From contig OZ245006.1 of NCBI GenBank assembly GCA_965223545.1, forward strand, positions 1,024,001 to 1,088,000: DNA of 64,000 nucleotides, read 5' to 3'. The notes under the pieces were generated by a model. It searched no databases. It saw nothing but the letters and a program-made list of their open reading frames with translations, and was not told where the DNA came from. This document shows, piece after piece, positions 26,733 through 46,825 of the stretch (position 1 is the first letter of the stretch; each line of letters starts with the position of its first letter). The translations under genes were made by a program, and so were the position numbers. The stretch comes from Planctomycetota bacterium. GTDB taxonomy: Bacteria; Planctomycetota; UBA1135; UBA2386.

Positions 26733-27485
26733 GTGAAGCCAGCAGCACGCAAGCTGATGATGGGCGGCCTCGTCGCAGCATTCGCCACGCAGACCACGCT
26801 GGTCTACACCGACGACACCGCCGACCGCACTCCCCGCCTCAGCGCCGAGGCGATGGTCGGCCGCGCTGTGTGGCACCGCGAGAACTGCCAGACTTGCCAC
26901 CAGATCTACGGCTTCGGCGGCTTTCTCGGACCCGACCTGACCAACGCCGCATCGCGACTGCCGCGCACCCGGATCGACGCCATGCTGACCGAGGGGTCCG
27001 GCCAGATGCCGGCGTTCCACCTCGAGCAGGCCGAGATCGAAGCGGTCTGGGCGTTCTTGCAGGCGATCGACGCCACCGGTGTCGGGCAGGCCCGCAACAC
27101 GCCGAAGCTCGACCGGACCGACGTCCAGCGCGCCATCGACGCGACGGTTCTGCAGCACCCGATGGATGCCGAGGCCAAGTCCGGGCGCATCCTGTTCGAG
27201 AACCTGTGTACCACCTGCCACTGCCCGTTGCAGGCGACCCCCAGCGGGGCGTTCTTGGCGCCGGATCTGAGCGACGTGACGCACCGGTTGTCGCGCGAGG
27301 AGTTGGTCGAGGTGCTCATCAACGGGCGCCCCGACCGCGGCATGCAGCCGACCGCCCTGTCGGAGAAGCACCGCGACGCGGTGATCGCATTCTTCACTTG
27401 GATGGCGGAGCACCGCGGTGCTCTGTGCCAGGCCGCCGGCGTGTCATCGGACCAGCAGTCGATCCCCTGGTGGGAATACCGCTGA
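26733..27485 (+). CDS. Di-heme NorC-like cytochrome c
   Basis: N-terminal anchor; NCQTCHQIYGFGGFLGPDLTN...MP (NorC-like); second CTTCH...APDL...GM domain. Confidence 0.85.
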   Translation: MKPAARKLMMGGLVAAFATQTTLVYTDDTADRTPRLSAEAMVGRAVWHRENCQTCHQIYGFGGFLGPDLTNAASRLPRTRIDAMLTEGSGQMPAFHLEQAEIEAVWAFLQAIDATGVGQARNTPKLDRTDVQRAIDATVLQHPMDAEAKSGRILFENLCTTCHCPLQATPSGAFLAPDLSDVTHRLSREELVEVLINGRPDRGMQPTALSEKHRDAVIAFFTWMAEHRGALCQAAGVSSDQQSIPWWEYR

Positions 27486-27528
27486 CCCGCGCCACCTCGC
27501 TCCGCTGGCGCACACCCGAAACCCTCTG

Positions 27529-28968
27529 ATGTCCGCAACCCCTACCCCCCAAACCGAGACGATCGACGCGGCCGCGACCGCGCGCGCTGATCGACTGGTC
27601 GCAGTGCAGCTGCGCATGGCGCTCGCCTGCATCGTGATCGCGGTCCTCGGCGGCGTCGTCGGCGCCCTGCACTACATCCCGTCGCTGTCGCCGGCACTGC
27701 ACGAGGCCGGCTTCGGCCTGACCAAGCTGCGCCCGCTGCACACCACGTTTGCCACGCTGTGGATCTACGGCGGGGCGATCGCCGTGATCTACCACTACCT
27801 GGGCAACCTCGGTCCCGGGTTGAGCACCGGCGACGCGCGGCGCTTCTGGCTGCACACGGCGTGCTGGATCACCGCCGGGATCGGCGTCATCGTCACGCTC
27901 GCGCTCGACATCTACAGCGGCCGCGAGTACCTCGGCTTCCACCCGGCGGTCTCGGCCGTGCTGCTCTTCGGCTGGCTGCTGTTCGCCTACAACTTCCTGC
28001 GCCGCGCCTGCCGCGACTTCTGGCGCCAACCGGTCTACATCTACTTCTGGACCGTCGGCATCCTGTACTTCGTCTACACCTTCGTCGAAGGCCACGCCTA
28101 CCTGCTGCCGTTCGTGCAGGAGCAGCCGGTCTACGACATCGCCTTGCACTGGAAGGCGTGCGGGACGCTGGTCGGCTCGTTCAACTTCCTGGTCTACGGC
28201 GCGCTGGTGTACGTGTCGGAGAAGCTCAGCGGAGACAAGCGCTACGGACAATCCTCGCTGGCGTTCGCCCTGTTCGGCGTCGGCTGCTTGAACTCGTTCA
28301 CCAACTTCGCGCACCACACCTACCACCTGCCGCAGGACGAGCTGGTCAAGTGGATCGCATTCATCGTCAGCATGACCGAGATCGTCATCCTGGCGCGACT
28401 GCTGTTCGACGTCGCCAACATGGTGCGCAAGCGCAGCGGGGAGAAGCCCTGCTACAACGCCGCTGCGGGCTACCTGGTGTCGGCCAAGTGGTGGACGACG
28501 GTGATGCTGACCCTCTCGATCCTCATCTCGGTGCCGTCGTTCAACAGCCTGATGCACGGCACCCACATGGTCACCGGCCACGCGATGGGCACCGAGCTCG
28601 GCATCGACACCATGGTGCTGTTCGGCGCCGTCTCGTTCCTGTTGTGCGAGATCTACAGCCACGCGCCGCGCGCTGTGTCCCACGTGGACGCTCCCCACAT
28701 GCGGGCGCACACCGCCCTGCTCAACGTCGCCATGGCGGTCTTGGTCGGCTGGCTGAGCCTGTCCGGCTTGGTGCACGGCATCTATCGCTACTACCAGGAG
28801 CCCTCGCCGGACTGGATCGGCTGGGGCACGTACTTGTTCCCGGTGACCGGCTCGGTGCTGGCGATTTGCCTGCTCTACCTCGTTTGGCGGTGGGCGCCGA
28901 TGTTGCTGCCGAGCGCCGGTGCCGCGCCCGCGGGCCGCACCGACACGTCGGGCGAACCGGCGATCTGA
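27529..28968 (+). CDS. Divergent NorB-like heme-copper oxidoreductase catalytic subunit
   Basis: About 12 TM; LRPLHT, GREYLG, FAHHTYH, HGTHMVTGHAM; canonical VHLWVEG replaced by KACGTLVG. Confidence 0.8.
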   Translation: MSATPTPQTETIDAAATARADRLVAVQLRMALACIVIAVLGGVVGALHYIPSLSPALHEAGFGLTKLRPLHTTFATLWIYGGAIAVIYHYLGNLGPGLSTGDARRFWLHTACWITAGIGVIVTLALDIYSGREYLGFHPAVSAVLLFGWLLFAYNFLRRACRDFWRQPVYIYFWTVGILYFVYTFVEGHAYLLPFVQEQPVYDIALHWKACGTLVGSFNFLVYGALVYVSEKLSGDKRYGQSSLAFALFGVGCLNSFTNFAHHTYHLPQDELVKWIAFIVSMTEIVILARLLFDVANMVRKRSGEKPCYNAAAGYLVSAKWWTTVMLTLSILISVPSFNSLMHGTHMVTGHAMGTELGIDTMVLFGAVSFLLCEIYSHAPRAVSHVDAPHMRAHTALLNVAMAVLVGWLSLSGLVHGIYRYYQEPSPDWIGWGTYLFPVTGSVLAICLLYLVWRWAPMLLPSAGAAPAGRTDTSGEPAI

Positions 28969-32445: not shown

Positions 32446-34056
32446 TCAGCGCGAAGCAAAGAACTCGAGCTCGAGTCCCGCGCTGCCCGAAGCGCCCATC
32501 GGCGCACCCGGATCGAGCGACAGCGCCTGCAGGTAGAGCGACATCCCCGCCATCGAGGGCGTCGCCGGCACCTTTAGCGGCGCCGACCATGTCCCGCCGC
32601 CGGCACCGGCACCTGCCAGCGGACCGATCGGCACGACCACCAAGGCGGGCGAACGCCCGACCTGCAGCGGCACGCCCAAGAACGGGAAGCCGATGCCCTG
32701 GAAGGTGTCCATCGCGAGCGCGGTCTGCGCGCCGCCGAGGCCGTCGGCGATCGTCAGCGTCATGTTGGGGTTGCCGAGCATCGGCGGCTCGATGCCGATC
32801 AGCCGCGGCTCGATGCCGCCACTGCCGGGCCCGCCCTGCCCGAACACCACCGGCTCGCGACCGGCCTGGGTGTACAGCGTGGGCGGATCGAACGGCGACA
32901 GCTTGCCGGCGACGCGCGGGTCGGTCAGCCCGTTCTCGAGGAAGTCGAGCAGCGCGACCTTCTCGGTCACGGTCAAGCCGAGCGGCCGCATCTCCGGATC
33001 GAGGTTGTCGAAGAAGTCCCCGCCGCGGTCGTAGAAGTCGATGACCTCGGCCAGCGACTTGTGGCCGCCGTTGTGCATGAACGCGGTCCGCAAGCCGACG
33101 TTGCGCAGACCCGGGGTCTTGAACGCGCCCTTGTCGGCGGTGATGCCGGTGATCACGAAGCGCCCCAGATCCTCTGATGAGGGTCGCAGACCGATGTTGT
33201 GGTACTGATCGTCACGGAACAGCACGCCTTCGTGGCACTGGGTGCAGCGCCCCTTGTTCTCGAACACGTCCTTGCCGATCTGCTGCAGCGGCGTGAGCGT
33301 GTTCGTGTCGAAGGGAGTCTGATCCGAGATCAGCGTGCGCTCGTAGGCGGCGATCGCCATCACGATCCGCGCGGGCGTGATGCTGGGATCGCCGTACACC
33401 AGGTTGAACAGGTTGGCGTAGCTCTGGTTGCCGATCCACGTGCTGAGCGCCGGCGGCAGTGCGCTCGCCAACGCCAGCGGCTTTGAGGCGGCAACCCGCG
33501 CGGCGATGTCGCTCCAGGTGCGTCCCTGATGCGCCATCTCGGCGTCACTGGTCGGCGGCCCCTTGGCCTGGTTCTCGAGCGACGCGTCTTTCGGCAGCAG
33601 CACCTGTCCGGTCAACGGATCGGTGAAGGCACCGTCCTCGCGACCGTCCCAGAACTGCTCCGGGTTGTACGCCGCGTTGATCATGCTCGGCGCGGCGCGG
33701 CCGGTGACCTGGACGTCGAAGCCAAACTGCGCGTGGCCCAGATAGACGCCGCTGGCATCGTTGAGCGGCACGCCTGGCGAGCCGTTGATGTCGTCGCCGG
33801 TGCCGAACTGGCCGTCCGGCCCCGGGTTGACCGCGAACGCGGTCCGTGGATCGGCGCCACCGGCGTCCGGCCGGTGGCAGGTGCCGCAGGCGACCGTTCT
33901 CGTCGACGACAGCTGTTCGTCCCAGAACAGCACCTTGCCGAGGTTGGCCTTGTCTTGCGTCGTGGGATTGCCCGCCGGCGTCGGCACTGGCGGCAGCTGA
34001 GCGACCGCGCAGGGAGCGACGCCGAACAGGCACAGGGCAGCTGCGCTGAACTTCAT
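32446..34056 (-). CDS. Secreted di-heme cytochrome c peroxidase/MauG-family protein with shared C-terminal domain
   Basis: LGKVLFWD, ACGTCH, QFWDGR, CTQCH, FKTPGLRNV, FMHNG, VIDFYDRGG; C-terminal PLKVPATPSMAGMSLYLQ. Confidence 0.9.
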   Translation of the reverse strand: MKFSAAALCLFGVAPCAVAQLPPVPTPAGNPTTQDKANLGKVLFWDEQLSSTRTVACGTCHRPDAGGADPRTAFAVNPGPDGQFGTGDDINGSPGVPLNDASGVYLGHAQFGFDVQVTGRAAPSMINAAYNPEQFWDGREDGAFTDPLTGQVLLPKDASLENQAKGPPTSDAEMAHQGRTWSDIAARVAASKPLALASALPPALSTWIGNQSYANLFNLVYGDPSITPARIVMAIAAYERTLISDQTPFDTNTLTPLQQIGKDVFENKGRCTQCHEGVLFRDDQYHNIGLRPSSEDLGRFVITGITADKGAFKTPGLRNVGLRTAFMHNGGHKSLAEVIDFYDRGGDFFDNLDPEMRPLGLTVTEKVALLDFLENGLTDPRVAGKLSPFDPPTLYTQAGREPVVFGQGGPGSGGIEPRLIGIEPPMLGNPNMTLTIADGLGGAQTALAMDTFQGIGFPFLGVPLQVGRSPALVVVPIGPLAGAGAGGGTWSAPLKVPATPSMAGMSLYLQALSLDPGAPMGASGSAGLELEFFASR

Positions 34057-41457: not shown

Positions 41458-42051
41458 GTGAGCTGTCCCGCCCGTCATAGCCAGCCGCCCCCGGACGCAC
41501 TGGGCGACTTGCTGCGCCGCGTAACGGCCGGCGACGAGCCCGCGCTCGCGACGCTCTACGACGCGACGGCGCGCTACGTGTACGGGCTGGCGCTGCGCGT
41601 CTTGGACGACGCCGGCGCCGCCGAAGAGGTCACCCTCGATGTCTACCAGCACATTTGGACCCGCGCCGACCAGTTCGATCGGCAGCGGGGCTCGGCGCAC
41701 GGCTGGATCCTGGCGATCGCGCGCAACCGCGCCATCGATCGGCGGCGGGCCCGCGCCGCGGCCGACCGGCGCGATGCCCAGCTCACCGAGCAGGGCAGCG
41801 ATCCCATGGACCCCCGACCGGACCCTCACACGCGCGCCATGTTGGCCGACCGCGGCGAACGCGTGCTCCGCGCGATGGACAGCCTGAGCGCGGAACAACG
41901 CGCGGTGATCGAGCTGGCGTTCTTCGCGGGCGAGAGCCACGGTCAGATCGCCACCCGCCTCCGCCTGCCGCTCGGCACCGTCAAGACCCGCATCCGTTGC
42001 GGCATCCGCCACCTGGCGCGGCTGCTGGCGCCGTTGGAGGACGACCGATGA
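41458..42051 (+). CDS. ECF RNA polymerase sigma factor (SigK/RpoE-like)
   Basis: LYD....VYGLALRVL, AEEVTLDVY, WILAIARNRAID, ELAFFAG.SH.QIA..L.LPLGTVKTRIR. Confidence 0.92.
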   Translation: MSCPARHSQPPPDALGDLLRRVTAGDEPALATLYDATARYVYGLALRVLDDAGAAEEVTLDVYQHIWTRADQFDRQRGSAHGWILAIARNRAIDRRRARAAADRRDAQLTEQGSDPMDPRPDPHTRAMLADRGERVLRAMDSLSAEQRAVIELAFFAGESHGQIATRLRLPLGTVKTRIRCGIRHLARLLAPLEDDR

Positions 42052-42719
42052 ACGCCCCGATGGATCCCCGTGAGCATCGCCGCCAAGCGCTCGAGCACGT
42101 CGCTCTCGACGCGATCGGCGCGCTCTCCAGCACCGACGACGGCGTCTGGGTCCGCAGCCACCTCGAGGCCGGCTGCGACATCTGCGCCGCGGCCGCGAAC
42201 CGCGTCGAGACCGTCTTCGACGAGCTGTTGCTGGCCGCACCCGCTGTCGAGCCGCCCGCCCGATTGCGCCACCGCCTGCTCGCCGGACTGGAAGCGCGAG
42301 ACCAAACCGAGGAAGCCCCGCAGCCCGAGCATCGGCCCGACGACAGCCCCACGCAGATCTGGAATCGCTGGATCGCCAGCGAGCCGAAGTTCTACACCCT
42401 ACCGGCCTCCGAACACGGCTGGCAGGAGATCGATGTCCCCGGCATCTCGGTGCGCCAGCTGCACGTCGACGAGCTGCGCGACCAAGTCACGATGCTGATC
42501 CGCATGGCGGCGGGCACGTCCTATCCCGCCCACCGCCACGGCGGCGACGAGCAGTGCTACGTGCTGGCCGGTGACCTGCGCGTCGAAGACGAGGTGCTCG
42601 GCGCAGGCGACTACCAGTTCGCCCCCGAGGGCAGCCTGCACGGGGTGCAGCGCACCGACGGCGGCTGCACCTTGCTCATCGTGTCGTCTCGAAACGACCA
42701 GTTGTTGACTCCCGACTGA
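42048..42719 (+). CDS. ChrR-like anti-sigma factor (zinc-binding domain plus cupin)
   Basis: HLEAGCDIC zinc motif; cupin YPAHRHGGDEQCYVL.G...H; ATGA overlap with the sigma gene. Confidence 0.85.
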   Translation: MNAPMDPREHRRQALEHVALDAIGALSSTDDGVWVRSHLEAGCDICAAAANRVETVFDELLLAAPAVEPPARLRHRLLAGLEARDQTEEAPQPEHRPDDSPTQIWNRWIASEPKFYTLPASEHGWQEIDVPGISVRQLHVDELRDQVTMLIRMAAGTSYPAHRHGGDEQCYVLAGDLRVEDEVLGAGDYQFAPEGSLHGVQRTDGGCTLLIVSSRNDQLLTPD

Positions 42720-42799
42720 CCAGCCCCACACACCGCTGGTCGGCACTCGAAACCGCGCCTCCACAGGGTGCGGTCCGTACCCACCGCCGACGAAAAGCC

Positions 42800-44092
42800 A
42801 TGACTCCGATGCGTTCCCTCTCCCTGTTCACCACGCTGGCGCTCGCCGCCTGCACTGCCGAGGTGCCCGCTCCCGCCGCGAACGCCGCCGCGTCTCTCAA
42901 CCCCGATCCGTGGCGGATCGTCCTCGCCCCGCAAGGCGGCGACAGCGAAGTCGACGTGCGCATCGCGCGCTGTCAAACCGAGGTCGAGCGCGCCACCGAT
43001 CCGGTCCCCCACCTCGAACGGCTCGGCTTCCTGTTCGTCAACAAGGCGCGCACGACCTTCGACGCCGGCTACTACAAGCTCGCCGAACAGTGTGCCGACT
43101 GCATCGAGGAGCGCCAGCCGGACGCACCCGCGGCGCTGCTCCTGCGGGGCCACGTGCTACAGAGCCTGCACCACTTCGAACGCGCCGAGGGCATCGCGCG
43201 CCAGCTGGTCGCGGCGCGTGGCAACTTCCTCGATCACGGCTTGCTCGGTGACGTGCTGCTCGACCGCGGCGACCTCGAGGGCGCGCTCGACAGCTATCAG
43301 GCGATGCTCGACCTCAAGCCCTGCTTGCAGTCGTACTCGCGCGCGGCGCGCGCCCGTTGGCTGCGCGGCGACGTGGACGGAGCCATCGTACTCATGCGCC
43401 TGGCGGTCGGCGCCGGCAGCCACCGCGATCCCGAGCCGTTGGCCTGGAGCTACGCCTGGCTGTCGACGATCGAGCTGCAGAACGGCGAGCTCGACGCGGC
43501 GGCCCGCTCGGTACGGCGGGCCCTCGAGCTCCTCCCCGACTACGCCCCCGCACTCCTCGCCGACGCACGCGTGCGACAGCACCGCGGTGACCGACAGGGC
43601 GCGTTGCAGCAGCTGCGCCAAGCTGCCGGCCAGCGCCCGGAGCCAGAGTACCTGTGGGCACTCGCGGACGCGCTGCGCGCGCACGGCGATGCTCCGGAGG
43701 CGGCGCGCGTCGAGGCCGAGCTCGAAGCGACCGGCGCCAGCGCCGATCCGCGCACCTACGCGCTCTACCTCGCCACCCGCCGGCGCCTGCCCGAGCAGGC
43801 CCTGCGGCTGGTCGGCGGCGAGCTCGACCAGCGGCACGACGTGCACACGCACGACGCACACGCGTGGGCGCTGCACGCCGCCGGCCAAACCAGCGCCGCC
43901 CGCGCCGCTGCGCGCAAAGCACTGGCGGCCGGCACCGAAGACGCGCGGCTGTTCTACCACGCCGGGGTGATCGCGGCCGCCGCCGGCGACGGCGAACAGG
44001 CCCGCGCACTGCTGGCGCGCGCCGACGCCCTGCGCGCCCTGCTGCTGCCATCCGAGCAGAGCGAGGTCGACCAGCACCTCGCGCGCCTCTAG
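42800..44092 (+). CDS. Tetratricopeptide-repeat lipoprotein
   Basis: Lipobox LAAC followed by helical TPR-like repeats. Confidence 0.8.
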   Translation: MTPMRSLSLFTTLALAACTAEVPAPAANAAASLNPDPWRIVLAPQGGDSEVDVRIARCQTEVERATDPVPHLERLGFLFVNKARTTFDAGYYKLAEQCADCIEERQPDAPAALLLRGHVLQSLHHFERAEGIARQLVAARGNFLDHGLLGDVLLDRGDLEGALDSYQAMLDLKPCLQSYSRAARARWLRGDVDGAIVLMRLAVGAGSHRDPEPLAWSYAWLSTIELQNGELDAAARSVRRALELLPDYAPALLADARVRQHRGDRQGALQQLRQAAGQRPEPEYLWALADALRAHGDAPEAARVEAELEATGASADPRTYALYLATRRRLPEQALRLVGGELDQRHDVHTHDAHAWALHAAGQTSAARAAARKALAAGTEDARLFYHAGVIAAAAGDGEQARALLARADALRALLLPSEQSEVDQHLARL

Positions 44093-44217
44093 CTGAACCA
44101 CCCCAGCGCCCCGCACTCGGCGCGGAGACGACCACCGACCCAACGTCGGGCGGTGGCGGTCCGCGTCGTGTTCTTCAAACCACCCCCAACTCCATACACA
44201 CATCTGGAGACCCATTC

Positions 44218-45669
44218 ATGCAACGCAATCGCTCCCCGCTCCTCTGTCTCGCTGCCGGCCTGGCCGCAGCCGCCTTGCCGAGCAACGCGGCAGCTTCCAG
44301 CCACATGGACGCACCGCTGATCACCCTGGATGACGCCGCGAACACCACCGACGTGTACGCGTTCGTCAGCGTGGACCCGGTCGGCAACAAGTACCTCACC
44401 ACCGCGCTCTCGGTCTACCCGTTCGAAGAGCCGGGCATCGGCCCCAACAAGTACAACTTCGACGACGACGTGCTCTACGGCATCCATCTGGCGGCCGGTC
44501 CGGACTTGGGGCAGGGCAAGCCGACGTTCAGCTACTACCTGCAGTTCGACACGTCATACAAGAACACCAAGACCATCTTGCAGTCGTACACCGGCGTGGT
44601 GAACGACGTCGACGACGCTGCGCAGAACCTGACGCAGCGCTACACGGTGACGGCGATCGACCTGCGCGCGGGTGGCCGCGGCACCCGCGTGCTCGGCGCC
44701 GGCGTGGTGCCACCCAACAATCAGGGCAACGCCACTCCGGAGTACAACGTCGGCGGCGGCGAAGGCGTCGCCAAGGACGGCGTCGCCAGCGTTCAGCAGC
44801 TCGACAAGTACACCGCGCAGAGCATCGCCGCCCTCGGCGAGGGACACCACAGCTTCGCCGGCCAGCGCGACGACGGCTTCTACGGCGACATCCAGGCGGT
44901 GTTCGACCTGCTGTCGCTGCGCAACCCCGGCGTCGACTCCCAGCACGGCTTCAACGTGCACACCATCGTGCTGCAGATCCCGATGGCGGCGATCGGCGGT
45001 GATCAACAGATGGTCGGCGTCTGGGGCACCACCGCCCGGCGGCAGGTCAACGTCCGCGCCGCCGACCGCCAGCGCATCCAGCTCGGCCGCTTCGTGCAGG
45101 TCGGACGCCAGGGCAACCCGCTGTTCTGCGAGGGCTTCGTCGCGATCGAGGACAAGGACCGCTACAATCGCACCGGACCCGACGTCGACAGCACACTGTT
45201 CCGGAAGTACGCCGAGACCCCGGAGCTCGCGGCGCTGCTCAACGCGATCGTGTTCAAGGGCGCGCCGATCTCCGGGATCGAGACCAACCGCACCGACCTC
45301 GCCGGGATCTTCATTCCCGATGTGATCAAGGTCGACCTCTCGACCGGCCCGGTGCCGCTCGCCGGCGGCGGCCCGAACCATCCGACCAACCCGGACGATC
45401 CCGGCTTCTCGCGGCTGAGCGTGTTCGGCGGCGACACGATCTTCAGCCCGCTGCAACAGCAGATGGTGCCCAGCGGCTGGCCGAACGGCCGCCGCTTCGG
45501 TGACGACGTGGTCGACATCGGGGTCTCCGCCGTGATCAGCGATCTGCGCGGCACCAACCCCGTGATCCGTACCGCCGGCGACAACGTCGACGGCAACGAA
45601 ATCGCCTACAGCAAGGTGATGCCGTACGCGGCCACGCCGCTCAACGGCCGCAACCACAGCCACCACTGA
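44218..45669 (+). CDS. DUF4331 family secreted protein
   Basis: SSHMDAP, NTTDVYAF, FAGQRDDGF, R.GNP, GWPNGRRFGDDVVD; ends NHSHH. Confidence 0.9.
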   Translation: MQRNRSPLLCLAAGLAAAALPSNAAASSHMDAPLITLDDAANTTDVYAFVSVDPVGNKYLTTALSVYPFEEPGIGPNKYNFDDDVLYGIHLAAGPDLGQGKPTFSYYLQFDTSYKNTKTILQSYTGVVNDVDDAAQNLTQRYTVTAIDLRAGGRGTRVLGAGVVPPNNQGNATPEYNVGGGEGVAKDGVASVQQLDKYTAQSIAALGEGHHSFAGQRDDGFYGDIQAVFDLLSLRNPGVDSQHGFNVHTIVLQIPMAAIGGDQQMVGVWGTTARRQVNVRAADRQRIQLGRFVQVGRQGNPLFCEGFVAIEDKDRYNRTGPDVDSTLFRKYAETPELAALLNAIVFKGAPISGIETNRTDLAGIFIPDVIKVDLSTGPVPLAGGGPNHPTNPDDPGFSRLSVFGGDTIFSPLQQQMVPSGWPNGRRFGDDVVDIGVSAVISDLRGTNPVIRTAGDNVDGNEIAYSKVMPYAATPLNGRNHSHH

Positions 45670-45757
45670 CCCCGACCGCGCGGGCACGGGAACGCCGTGC
45701 CCGCGCCAACCACCCCACACACCTTCGCTTCCCCACACACCTTCCGAGACCTCCGTC

Positions 45758-46825
45758 ATGCGCCTGCCCGTTTCGTTGCTGGCTGCTTCCCTGCTCGCCG
45801 CTCCCGTCCTCTCCCACGACCCCGGCCTCAGCGCGGCGTCGGTCCGCGCCGGCGCCACCGCGATCGAGGTCGACGTCTCGCTCAGCAACGCCGACGCGGC
45901 CGGCGCCCTGCCCGCCGACCTGGACGGGGACGGCGCGATCTCGGCTGCCGAGCTGCACCGTGCGCGCGGGGAGTTGCAGGCGTACTTCGCGGCCCACCCC
46001 GTTCTGACCATCGGCGACGCCATCCCGGAGCTGGTCTCCGCCGCCTTCGCCATCGGCGACGAGCGCGACGTCGTCTGCCGGCTGCGCTACGCGCGAGCCG
46101 AAGACGGGGCGCTGACCTACTCGGCGCCGCTGCTCGAAACGCTGCCGCGCGGCCACCGGCAGTACGCGGCAATCTACGATGGCGCCGGCGGGCGCCGCGC
46201 CGAAGCGGTGCTACACCGCGGTCATCCGGGCCTGCGCGCATCGTTGGACGGCGGCACCGATGCCAGCCGCAACGCCGGAGCCTTTGCCTTCGCGGTGCTC
46301 GGCGTCGAGCACATCCTGATCGGTTACGACCACATCCTGTTCCTGCTGGCCTTGCTGCTCGCGACGCCGTCGCTGCGCTCCGCGCTGTTGGTCATCACGA
46401 CCTTCACGGTGGCGCATTCGGCGACGCTCGCGGTGGCGACCCTGGACCTCGTTCGTCTACCAGGTTCGCTGGTCGAAGCGGTGATCGCCGCCTCGATCCT
46501 CTGGGTGGCCGCCGACAACCTGCGCCGCCGTGGCTCGGGCGCGCGCCTCGGAGTGACCTTCGGCTTCGGCCTGGTGCACGGCTTCGGCTTTGCCTCGGTG
46601 CTGCGGGACCTCGGCATCGCCGAGGCCGGTGGCGTGGTGCTGCCGCTGTTGTCGTTCAACGCCGGGGTCGAGCTCGGCCAGCTGGCGATCGCCGCCCTGG
46701 CACTGCCGATCCTGCACCGCTTGGCCCGCCGCCCGACGTTCCGGTCGCGGATCCTGCCGGCCGCGTCCTGCACCGTGGGCGCGATCGGTGCGTGGTGGCT
46801 GCTCGAACGGACCCTGCTCGGTTAG
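45758..46825 (+). CDS. HupE/UreJ family protein
   Basis: Mature N-terminal His; GVEHILIGYDHILFL, FTVAHS, EAVIAASI, FGLVHGFGFA, FNAGVELGQ. Confidence 0.9.
   Translation: MRLPVSLLAASLLAAPVLSHDPGLSAASVRAGATAIEVDVSLSNADAAGALPADLDGDGAISAAELHRARGELQAYFAAHPVLTIGDAIPELVSAAFAIGDERDVVCRLRYARAEDGALTYSAPLLETLPRGHRQYAAIYDGAGGRRAEAVLHRGHPGLRASLDGGTDASRNAGAFAFAVLGVEHILIGYDHILFLLALLLATPSLRSALLVITTFTVAHSATLAVATLDLVRLPGSLVEAVIAASILWVAADNLRRRGSGARLGVTFGFGLVHGFGFASVLRDLGIAEAGGVVLPLLSFNAGVELGQLAIAALALPILHRLARRPTFRSRILPAASCTVGAIGAWWLLERTLLG

Follow-up and report, generated by a model that had tools for sequence, protein, structure and literature searches.

The window analysed here, a stretch of 64,000 nucleotides from the Planctomycetota bacterium contig OZ245006.1 (assembly GCA_965223545.1, forward-strand positions 1,024,001 to 1,088,000), carries on its plus strand a NorCB-like pair of genes: one for a cytochrome c of 250 amino acids and, after a gap of 43 bases, one for a membrane protein of 479 amino acids. 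On sequence grounds, the pair very probably represents the haem-copper oxidase family that has been named 'N2O red', whose active site appears to be unlike that of the characterised members, with two His, no ligand from helix VI, an invariant Lys and a His/Met haem. This rebuilt site reflects selection, not decay. As for function, we favour, with slightly less than even confidence, the reduction or scavenging of nitric oxide (NO) at the rebuilt haem site.

The rebuilt site of the large subunit

The large subunit and the residues that define its site are located as follows.

27529..28968, plus strand: large subunit, 479 amino acids, haem-copper oxidase fold, probable 'N2O red' family (PF00115, E 8.4e-19)
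27730..27741, plus strand: Arg68 and His71, in the helix-II region that supplies a low-spin haem ligand (LRPLHT; His71 at 27739); Arg in 303/303, His in 304/304; aligns with cbb3 RPLH
27925..27927, plus strand: Glu133; conserved in 304/305, aligned with cNOR and cbb3
28087..28089, plus strand: Glu187, acidic, at the end of helix V; 305/305; no clear cNOR or cbb3 counterpart, in a stretch that aligns poorly
28150..28185, plus strand: helix VI as rebuilt, W208-K209-x-x211-G212-x-x-V215-G216-x-x-N219; His and Glu both absent; position 211 variable, the W, K, G212 and N invariant
28291..28317, plus strand: helix VII, Asn255 and the His262-His263 metal pair (HH at 28312-28317); no C-family cross-link Tyr
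28369..28380, plus strand: Ser281-Met-x-Glu284, counterpart of cNOR helix-VIII S-A-L-E; Ser in 305/305, Glu in 304/305
28555..28587, plus strand: helix X, His343 (HGTH at 28555), His351 (high-spin haem position) and Met353 (H-A-M at 28579-28587); gapless to HGT...HGH of the host's NorB

All the motifs picked out in the preliminary description of this DNA (LRPLHT, GREYL, helix VI, HH, HGTH and H-A-M) lie where it had placed them, GREYL being found at 27919. Glu133 presumably stands where cNOR and cbb3 have their inter-haem Ca2+ ligand.

Conservation was assessed on 306 distinct cores, reduced from 329 pooled sequences and reaching down to about 27% identity. Two homolog searches were made, the first yielding 392 homologs, of which the best 120 were used, and the second, started from a distant member, yielding 51. 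R68, H71, E187, W208, K209, G212, N219, N255, H263, S281 and H343 are invariant where aligned, and Lys209 in particular is conserved in 305/305. Near-invariance extends to E133 and E284 (counts above), H262 (303/304), H351 (304/306) and M353 (303/306). Altogether, conservation reaches at least 95% at 30 positions with polar or aromatic residues, pocket residues among them. The Met that had been read in place of the second low-spin haem His is thus a property of nearly all homologs, and the loss of the helix-VI Glu pair, also claimed earlier, is borne out by the absence of any conserved Glu at the matching positions (residues 203-231). As homologs share both the change from His to Met and the missing helix-VI ligands, these are family traits, and a decaying norCB was rejected as an explanation.

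The register of helix VI, whose sequence LHWKACGTLVGSFN starts at 28144, is less straightforward. The preliminary description had taken Cys211 (28159) as the replacement of the helix-VI His. This assignment did not hold, and Cys211 was rejected as a conserved metal ligand: position 211 is Cys in 138 of the cores, Tyr in 105, Thr in 38, Ala in 11, Asn in 10 and Ser in 4, and in the tree the Cys211 members are nested within the Tyr211 members. His207 (28147) was rejected as well, Gln occupying this position in 298/305, and is therefore not the canonical ligand that an alternative alignment might have made of it. The lost His aligns best, as far as sequence comparison can tell, to Gly212 (28162). 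Specifically, a profile search against PDB aligned the cbb3 stretch D-A-M-V-Q-W-W-Y-G-H-N-A-V-G without gaps to D-L-Q-V-Q-W-K-S-C-G-T-L-V-G, so that the CuB His falls opposite Gly212, and profile alignments to cNOR and to cbb3 set the His there too; one of the four alignments, that to cNOR and qNOR together, has a five-residue gap in the helix-VI stretch. Counted from the conserved Trp, the cNOR and cbb3 His stands at +4 and the Val at +7, as do Gly212 and Val215 in the large subunit. Somewhere past this Trp helix VI is one residue shorter than in cNOR, the first Glu mapping to V215 or G216, and the earlier register with Cys211 opposite the His is therefore not impossible. Whatever the register, no His or Glu is conserved at helix-VI positions. 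The helical conservation moment of helix VI (0.67 vs 6-7 for helices VII and VIII) is too weak to assign its inward face; Lys209, Asn219, Asn255, Glu187 and the retained Glu284 are candidates for new chemistry that would face the site.

Fold, and the case for oxygen

The only Pfam match of the large subunit is PF00115, and no NCBIfam model, TIGR00780 (cbb3) included, was matched. A single-sequence search against PDB gave no match, and a plasmid search returned three weak haloarchaeal ones. The AlphaFold2 model (predicted local confidence, pLDDT, 91) gave Foldseek TM scores of 0.74-0.80 to cbb3 and cNOR (0.74-0.79 for cbb3) vs 0.59-0.72 to ba3, and VIA Z values of 36.2 for 4xyd_A (root-mean-square deviation 2.7, 424 residues aligned), 35.6 for 3mk7_G, 34.2 for 3o0r_B and 28.7 for the best qNOR. 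As modelled, the large subunit is about equally close in fold to cbb3 CcoN and cNOR NorB.

This double likeness would also suit an O2 reductase or scavenger operating without the cross-linked Tyr, and so would the NCBI label of homologs ('cbb3-type subunit I'), the cbb3-like Q-W and V-G retained in helix VI, and the Tyr found at position 211 in 105/306. Tyr211, however, is not conserved; the C-family Tyr position is Ser, Leu or Thr in the family and the A/B-family position is Gly or Ala; the cross-link His is gone; and the host already has caa3- and cbb3-type oxidases. Without a redox Tyr, a reaction of one or two electrons is all that would be expected, and four-electron O2 reduction is therefore unlikely; a role in O2 chemistry seems to us highly improbable. 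The earlier statement that the enzyme is neither a canonical cNOR nor an O2 reductase stands, the helix-VI His and Glu and the cross-link Tyr being gone and the low-spin haem being served by H-x-M.

Probable membership of the 'N2O red' family

The available parts of Murali et al. (PNAS 2024, PMC11214002) present 'N2O red' (N2Ored) as a cNOR-related haem-copper oxidase family without the active-site Tyr, with 293 GTDB entries and hosts in Bacteroidota, Planctomycetota and Gemmatimonadota; the family 'might serve' as a nitrous oxide (N2O) reductase insensitive to sulfide and acetylene, which in that text is a proposal only. The NorCB-like pair very probably belongs to it, because in a comparison of counts the oxidases per genome equal the rows of Dataset S6 once the family is read as N2Ored. 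For SZUA-318, for example, Dataset S6 lists A1, C1, eNOR1 and N2Ored1, and four oxidases were found, one of them of the NorCB-like family; for DRLC01 it lists A2 and N2Ored1, and two A-type oxidases plus one family member were found. Similarly, VXMQ01 (Palauibacter) has two strong COX1 matches and two family copies, like the row of JAAXHJ01 sp009841015 (A2, N2Ored2; a presumed link), and two UBA genomes fit, through presumed links as well, rows of genus UBA1138. The distant homolog P0164 is KXK43292.1 of OLB11, all four rows of which list N2Ored1. None of the 11 reference accessions of 'N2O red' is listed in the 20 homolog clusters looked up.

A quick IQ-TREE phylogeny of 55 rows, with long branches flagged and no B-family rows, groups all family members together (SH-aLRT 99) and places them next to cNOR plus qNOR (96), with cbb3 outside. 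This position in the C-family arm near cNOR matches the description in PMC11214002, as does the absence of the cross-link Tyr. The closest homologs among the matches listed are from Planctomycetota. An uncharacterised cNOR-related family had been suggested at the outset: the kinship with cNOR and qNOR and the conserved rebuilt site agree with this, but the family had already been named in 2024. The pair is thus a new member of a named family, in its Cys211/di-haem sub-branch, and the family itself is not new. Our literature search, which did not cover subscription journals, found no biochemical test of 'N2O red'.

The small subunit and the two-gene unit

26733..27485, plus strand: NorC-like small subunit, 250 amino acids, starting at GTG, with two c-haem domains and an N-terminal membrane anchor
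26886..26900, plus strand: CQTCH, motif of haem c1, with Met92 (27006) as the likely axial ligand; C52, C55, H56 and M92 invariant (57-row alignment)
27207..27221, plus strand: CTTCH, motif of haem c2, with Met204 (27342) as the likely axial ligand; C159, C162, H163 and M204 invariant (57-row alignment)

The best PDB sequence match of the small subunit is P. aeruginosa NorC (3o0r_C, E 5.6e-8), and its best solved relatives are NorC chains. The partner had been described as NorC-like with an extra CxxCH, which its two motifs confirm for this pair but which does not extend to the whole family. In the branch of the present pair, 76 of 81 aligned partners, the present one counted, have two CxxCH with a distal Met, and of the five exceptions four are short or truncated at the edge of the locus; in a distant branch of low-GC sequences, Bacteroidota-like by similarity and about 27-30% identical to the query, the partner has one haem in 72/73. 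Moreover, the host's own canonical NorC is also di-haem, and the second haem is therefore not what makes the NorCB-like enzyme special. At 26913-26927 the small subunit reads G-F-G-G-F where NorC has G-E-G-A-Y, whose Glu and Tyr we take to be a proton-entry residue and a Ca2+ ligand of cNOR; given this difference, proton entry may differ from that of cNOR.

Both open reading frames are intact, their third-position GC contents (0.90 and 0.95) are similar to those of neighbouring genes, and the two-gene unit is kept in 104/105 loci examined. A model of the complex scored an ipSAE of 0.90 vs 0.01 for the best control, with runs agreeing in at least 96% of contacts and a partner pLDDT of at least 85; the mark set for this score is attained by 116/157 solved pairs and 2/215 mismatched pairs. 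Since NorBC is a solved complex, the score shows likeness only, not binding.

The lost metal ligands and the lack of linked chaperone genes might point to a non-catalytic electron relay, a gas sensor or a norCB in decay. Decay is excluded, and the other two readings are hard to credit in view of the conserved polar and aromatic positions, pocket included, and of the persistence of the unit.

A search upstream of the pair gave no sigma-70 promoter, no terminator and no Fnr-like box. When 28 neighbouring open reading frames were scanned with Pfam, unrelated genes (LpxI, flippase, histidine kinase) were identified and no norQ, norD, nirK or nirS in the window; by tblastn, norQ, norD and nirK are located 5.7 Mb from the pair, in agreement with the earlier remark that neither norQ/norD nor a nitrite reductase lies nearby. 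A gene for a MauG/CCP-type di-haem cytochrome c peroxidase-like protein (32446-34056, minus strand) lies 3.5 kb downstream, with no link shown, and a single run of genes at 41509-46825 (plus strand) encodes an extracytoplasmic function (ECF) sigma factor, a ChrR-cupin anti-sigma factor, a TPR protein, a DUF4331 protein and HupE/UreJ.

Host genome and carriers

A survey of the host genome (91% complete) for nir and nos genes, which had been proposed as a check, found nirK, a canonical cNOR and napA but no nosZ; narG and nrfA were not found either. The search for nosZ used TIGR04246 (which matched 16/301 genomes) and tblastn, whereas a PF18764 search, which matched no control, was not used. The canonical nirK and norCB lie in a cluster of their own, together with norQ/norD-like genes and an Rrf2 gene. 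At this locus (L114:2057-11540, G000:C1:6728056-6737539) nirK is fused to a cytochrome c and norC is di-haem, and SCO-like and formylglycine-enzyme-like genes are present as well.

In this setting, the proposal of Murali et al., that is, a NosZ-independent reductase converting N2O to N2, would finish the chain of napA, nirK and cNOR in a host in which no nosZ was found. Similarly, six cultured carriers (five Chryseobacterium species and Flavobacterium antarcticum) have nirK and a NO reductase (NOR) with no nosZ or nosD in Dataset S8. The raised potential expected of a His/Met haem would also suit a high-potential acceptor. Solitalea canadensis, which we take to be the later name of Flexibacter canadensis, carries the family. 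For Flexibacter canadensis, the available text of PMC11214002 cites reports of 1990 and 1992 on a membrane-bound N2O reductase insensitive to sulfide and acetylene. However, Dataset S8 lists nosZ and nosD for S. canadensis, which may explain that old phenotype, and nosZ is present in four of the five reference N2Ored genomes looked up there (F. croceum, C. normanense, J022 sp008363215 and JACNIZ01), F. antarcticum being the one without it. Nor is nosZ excluded in the phylum: among 301 genomes sampled, it occurs in 3 of the 27 that carry the family (one under cut-off) vs 13 of the 274 that do not (Fisher p 0.16, kin not independent). It was also found in 13 of 50 locus genomes, 11 above cut-off; these 50 come from the at least 80 genome loci scanned and partly overlap the phylum sample. 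In addition, N2O is a weak metal ligand, and the known N2O reductases use copper-sulfide clusters. On balance, N2O reduction appears rather unlikely.

Within the 27 carriers, nirK is above cut-off in 2, a cd1-type match is present in 2 and cNOR or qNOR in 5, and in 17 none of nirK, nirS, cNOR/qNOR and nosZ was found; as the sampled genomes are incomplete and related, these counts are tendencies. An A- or C-type O2 reductase is present in 53/53 carriers in part 1 of Dataset S6, and J022 sp008363215, SZUA-318 and JACNIZ01 combine nap, NOR and nos with no nir. In other words, the family does not exclude nosZ, and it neither consistently replaces NosZ nor tracks any single denitrification step.

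These four observations (the 17 carriers without such genes, the O2 reductases of the 53 listed carriers, the three genomes without nir and an invariant Lys209 in a membrane-buried pocket, suited to an anionic substrate or product) would be in keeping with another small oxidant or anion. Possible reactions are the two-electron reduction of peroxide or peroxynitrite, the reduction of nitrite, or, run backwards, an oxidation of NO to nitrite that would hand electrons to cytochrome c, with Lys209 binding the anion. We consider this doubtful: the haem-facing placement of Lys209 is conjectural, other carriers (the host and Chryseobacterium) do have nirK, and Solitalea longa has no nir and yet lacks the family.

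Neighbourhoods of relatives and nitric oxide

In the branch of the present pair, the two-gene unit is the only conserved feature of the neighbourhood: 13 queries for markers such as Rrf2, RIC, nir, nor and nos gave no match in the 80 loci searched, control loci being matched by 8 of them. The distant branch is different. Among its 80 metagenome loci (of at least 80 scanned), an Rrf2 regulator lies near the pair in 42, and in 33 it is at most 1 kb downstream on the same strand; a three-Cys motif is found in 47/47 Rrf2 open reading frames of this branch. RIC/ScdA occurs in 15 of the 80 loci, haemerythrin and DUF2249 genes in 7-8, norB-type genes in 5 when counted by tblastn and in 9 when counted by clustering, nosZ in 3 and nirK in 4. 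Rrf2, RIC and haemerythrin are markers of NO-stress and low-oxygen regulons.

Other genes recur in these loci. A QueD-like 6-pyruvoyl-tetrahydropterin synthase gene stands beside the large subunit in 35/80 (e.g. L208:9364-9843), in most cases lying between that subunit's gene and the Rrf2 gene, and a tryptophanase-type beta-eliminating lyase gene is near the operon in 11/80 (L175, L184, L188 and others) and also in L116. The latter locus (L116:2581-11995, G040:C18) holds a distant-family operon, with a one-haem partner and W-K-S-Y-G, 6 kb from a divergent NosZ-like gene. This gene scores 487 bits with TIGR04246, under cut-off, and is preceded by genes for a di-haem cytochrome c, two SCO proteins and a cupredoxin; similar sub-cut-off NosZ-like genes are present in G307 and G321.

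The reduction or scavenging of NO by the NorCB-like pair is favoured, at the strength given above, because turning 2 NO into N2O is what this branch does by default as a two-electron reaction and because the Rrf2/RIC context fits. In the mechanism envisaged, electrons would pass from a periplasmic cytochrome c to haem c2, haem c1, the His/Met low-spin haem b and finally the high-spin haem on His351. His262 and His263 would hold the non-haem metal, Gly212 would open the space vacated by the lost helix-VI His, and Lys209, one turn before, Glu284 or solvent might complete the site or deliver protons. The enzyme would then act on its own under low oxygen, as a sink for NO or related nitrogen oxides and not as a fixed denitrification step. 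The low-spin haem b would have a raised potential; a remark on nNOR in the available text of PMC11214002 puts a His/Met haem about 150 mV higher.

Several points weigh against NO as substrate. Two of the four FeB ligands of cNOR, as we presume these to be numbered, are gone in the large subunit. The host already has a full nirK-norCB-norQD cluster, so that a second NO reductase would be redundant, and the only denitrification step it misses is N2O reduction; the same six Chryseobacterium and Flavobacterium carriers have nirK and NOR without nosZ. As the loci of the pair's own branch are free of markers, the NO-stress context comes only from relatives that are about 27-30% identical, many of them close kin, and Rrf2 proteins sense other signals besides NO. 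Furthermore, in 23 of the 27 phylum carriers neither nirK nor nirS was found, and most carriers therefore make no NO by denitrification. Finally, cNOR without FeB is inactive according to the accessible part of PMC9976466, whereas T. thermophilus cNOR is reported, in the accessible part of PMC12067857, to keep a low activity when FeB ligands are changed. In favour of NO, according to the available text of PMC11214002, several site structures suit NO reduction, gNOR swapping one His and nNOR having a low-spin haem of the His/Met type, although both are NORs by prediction only.

Significance

The family is widespread, with the GTDB entries counted in the available text of PMC11214002 and a presence in 27/301 of the genomes sampled here, and databases label it cbb3 or norB, which distorts the calling of N2O sources and sinks. 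It lacks an active-site His, although the same text calls gNOR the first family to replace one. The present analysis corrects the helix-VI register, excludes Cys as a ligand, finds that the family does not exclude nosZ and identifies cultured carriers without nosZ, among them Chryseobacterium daecheongense, C. hispalense, C. limigenitum and Flavobacterium antarcticum. If NO reduction were true, an iron site of three His and one Glu would not be required for it. If N2O reduction were true instead, NosZ would not be the sole biological sink, and a haem with a two-His metal site and an active-site Lys would do this chemistry; denitrification would be closed in genomes scored as N2O emitters, that of the host included, and about 9% of the phylum genomes sampled would hold an unrecognised N2O sink.

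Comparison with known systems

The closest comparison is with the 'N2O red' family itself, with which the pair shares the cNOR-related branch, the lack of Tyr, common host groups and matching counts in the named genomes checked. Within it, the present copy lies in a derived sub-branch with Cys211 and a di-haem partner, whereas the distant branch has Tyr and one haem.

With cNOR (3O0R, 4XYD) the pair has in common the fold (Z 34.2 and 36.2), a NorC-like partner gene upstream, the helix-II His, the helix-VII HH, the helix-VIII S-x-x-E, HGT and the helix-X high-spin His. In cNOR, however, FeB has three His and one Glu as ligands (helix VI H-L-W-V-E-G-x-x-E), a motif that is complete in the host's NorB and missing in the large subunit, and the low-spin haem b is bis-His (helix X H-x-H) instead of H-x-M. 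Furthermore, the large subunit has no linked norQD and one residue fewer from helix VI to the HH pair, and its invariant Lys, Asn, Asn and Glu are not seen in cNOR.

The likeness to cbb3 CcoN consists in the fold (TM as given above), RPLH, helix-VI Q-W and V-G, and a cytochrome c partner; cbb3 differs in having CuB with three His and a cross-linked Tyr of helix VII, while the NorCB-like pair has no helix-VI His, no such Tyr and no ccoO, ccoP or ccoG. qNOR and NOD are single fused polypeptides of about 750 amino acids without a haem c motif, against two genes and two CxxCH here.

Lastly, nNOR, gNOR, eNOR and sNOR are B-family enzymes with a CuA-type (cupredoxin) second subunit, whereas here the partner is a cytochrome c and the fold is nearer to cbb3 and cNOR. 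In the available text of PMC11214002, nNOR shares with the present family the His/Met low-spin haem and gNOR the loss of one active-site His. Both are derived from the B-family; gNOR has an Asp where the His would be, and in nNOR the three His and the Glu are retained. The likeness to nNOR and gNOR is convergent.

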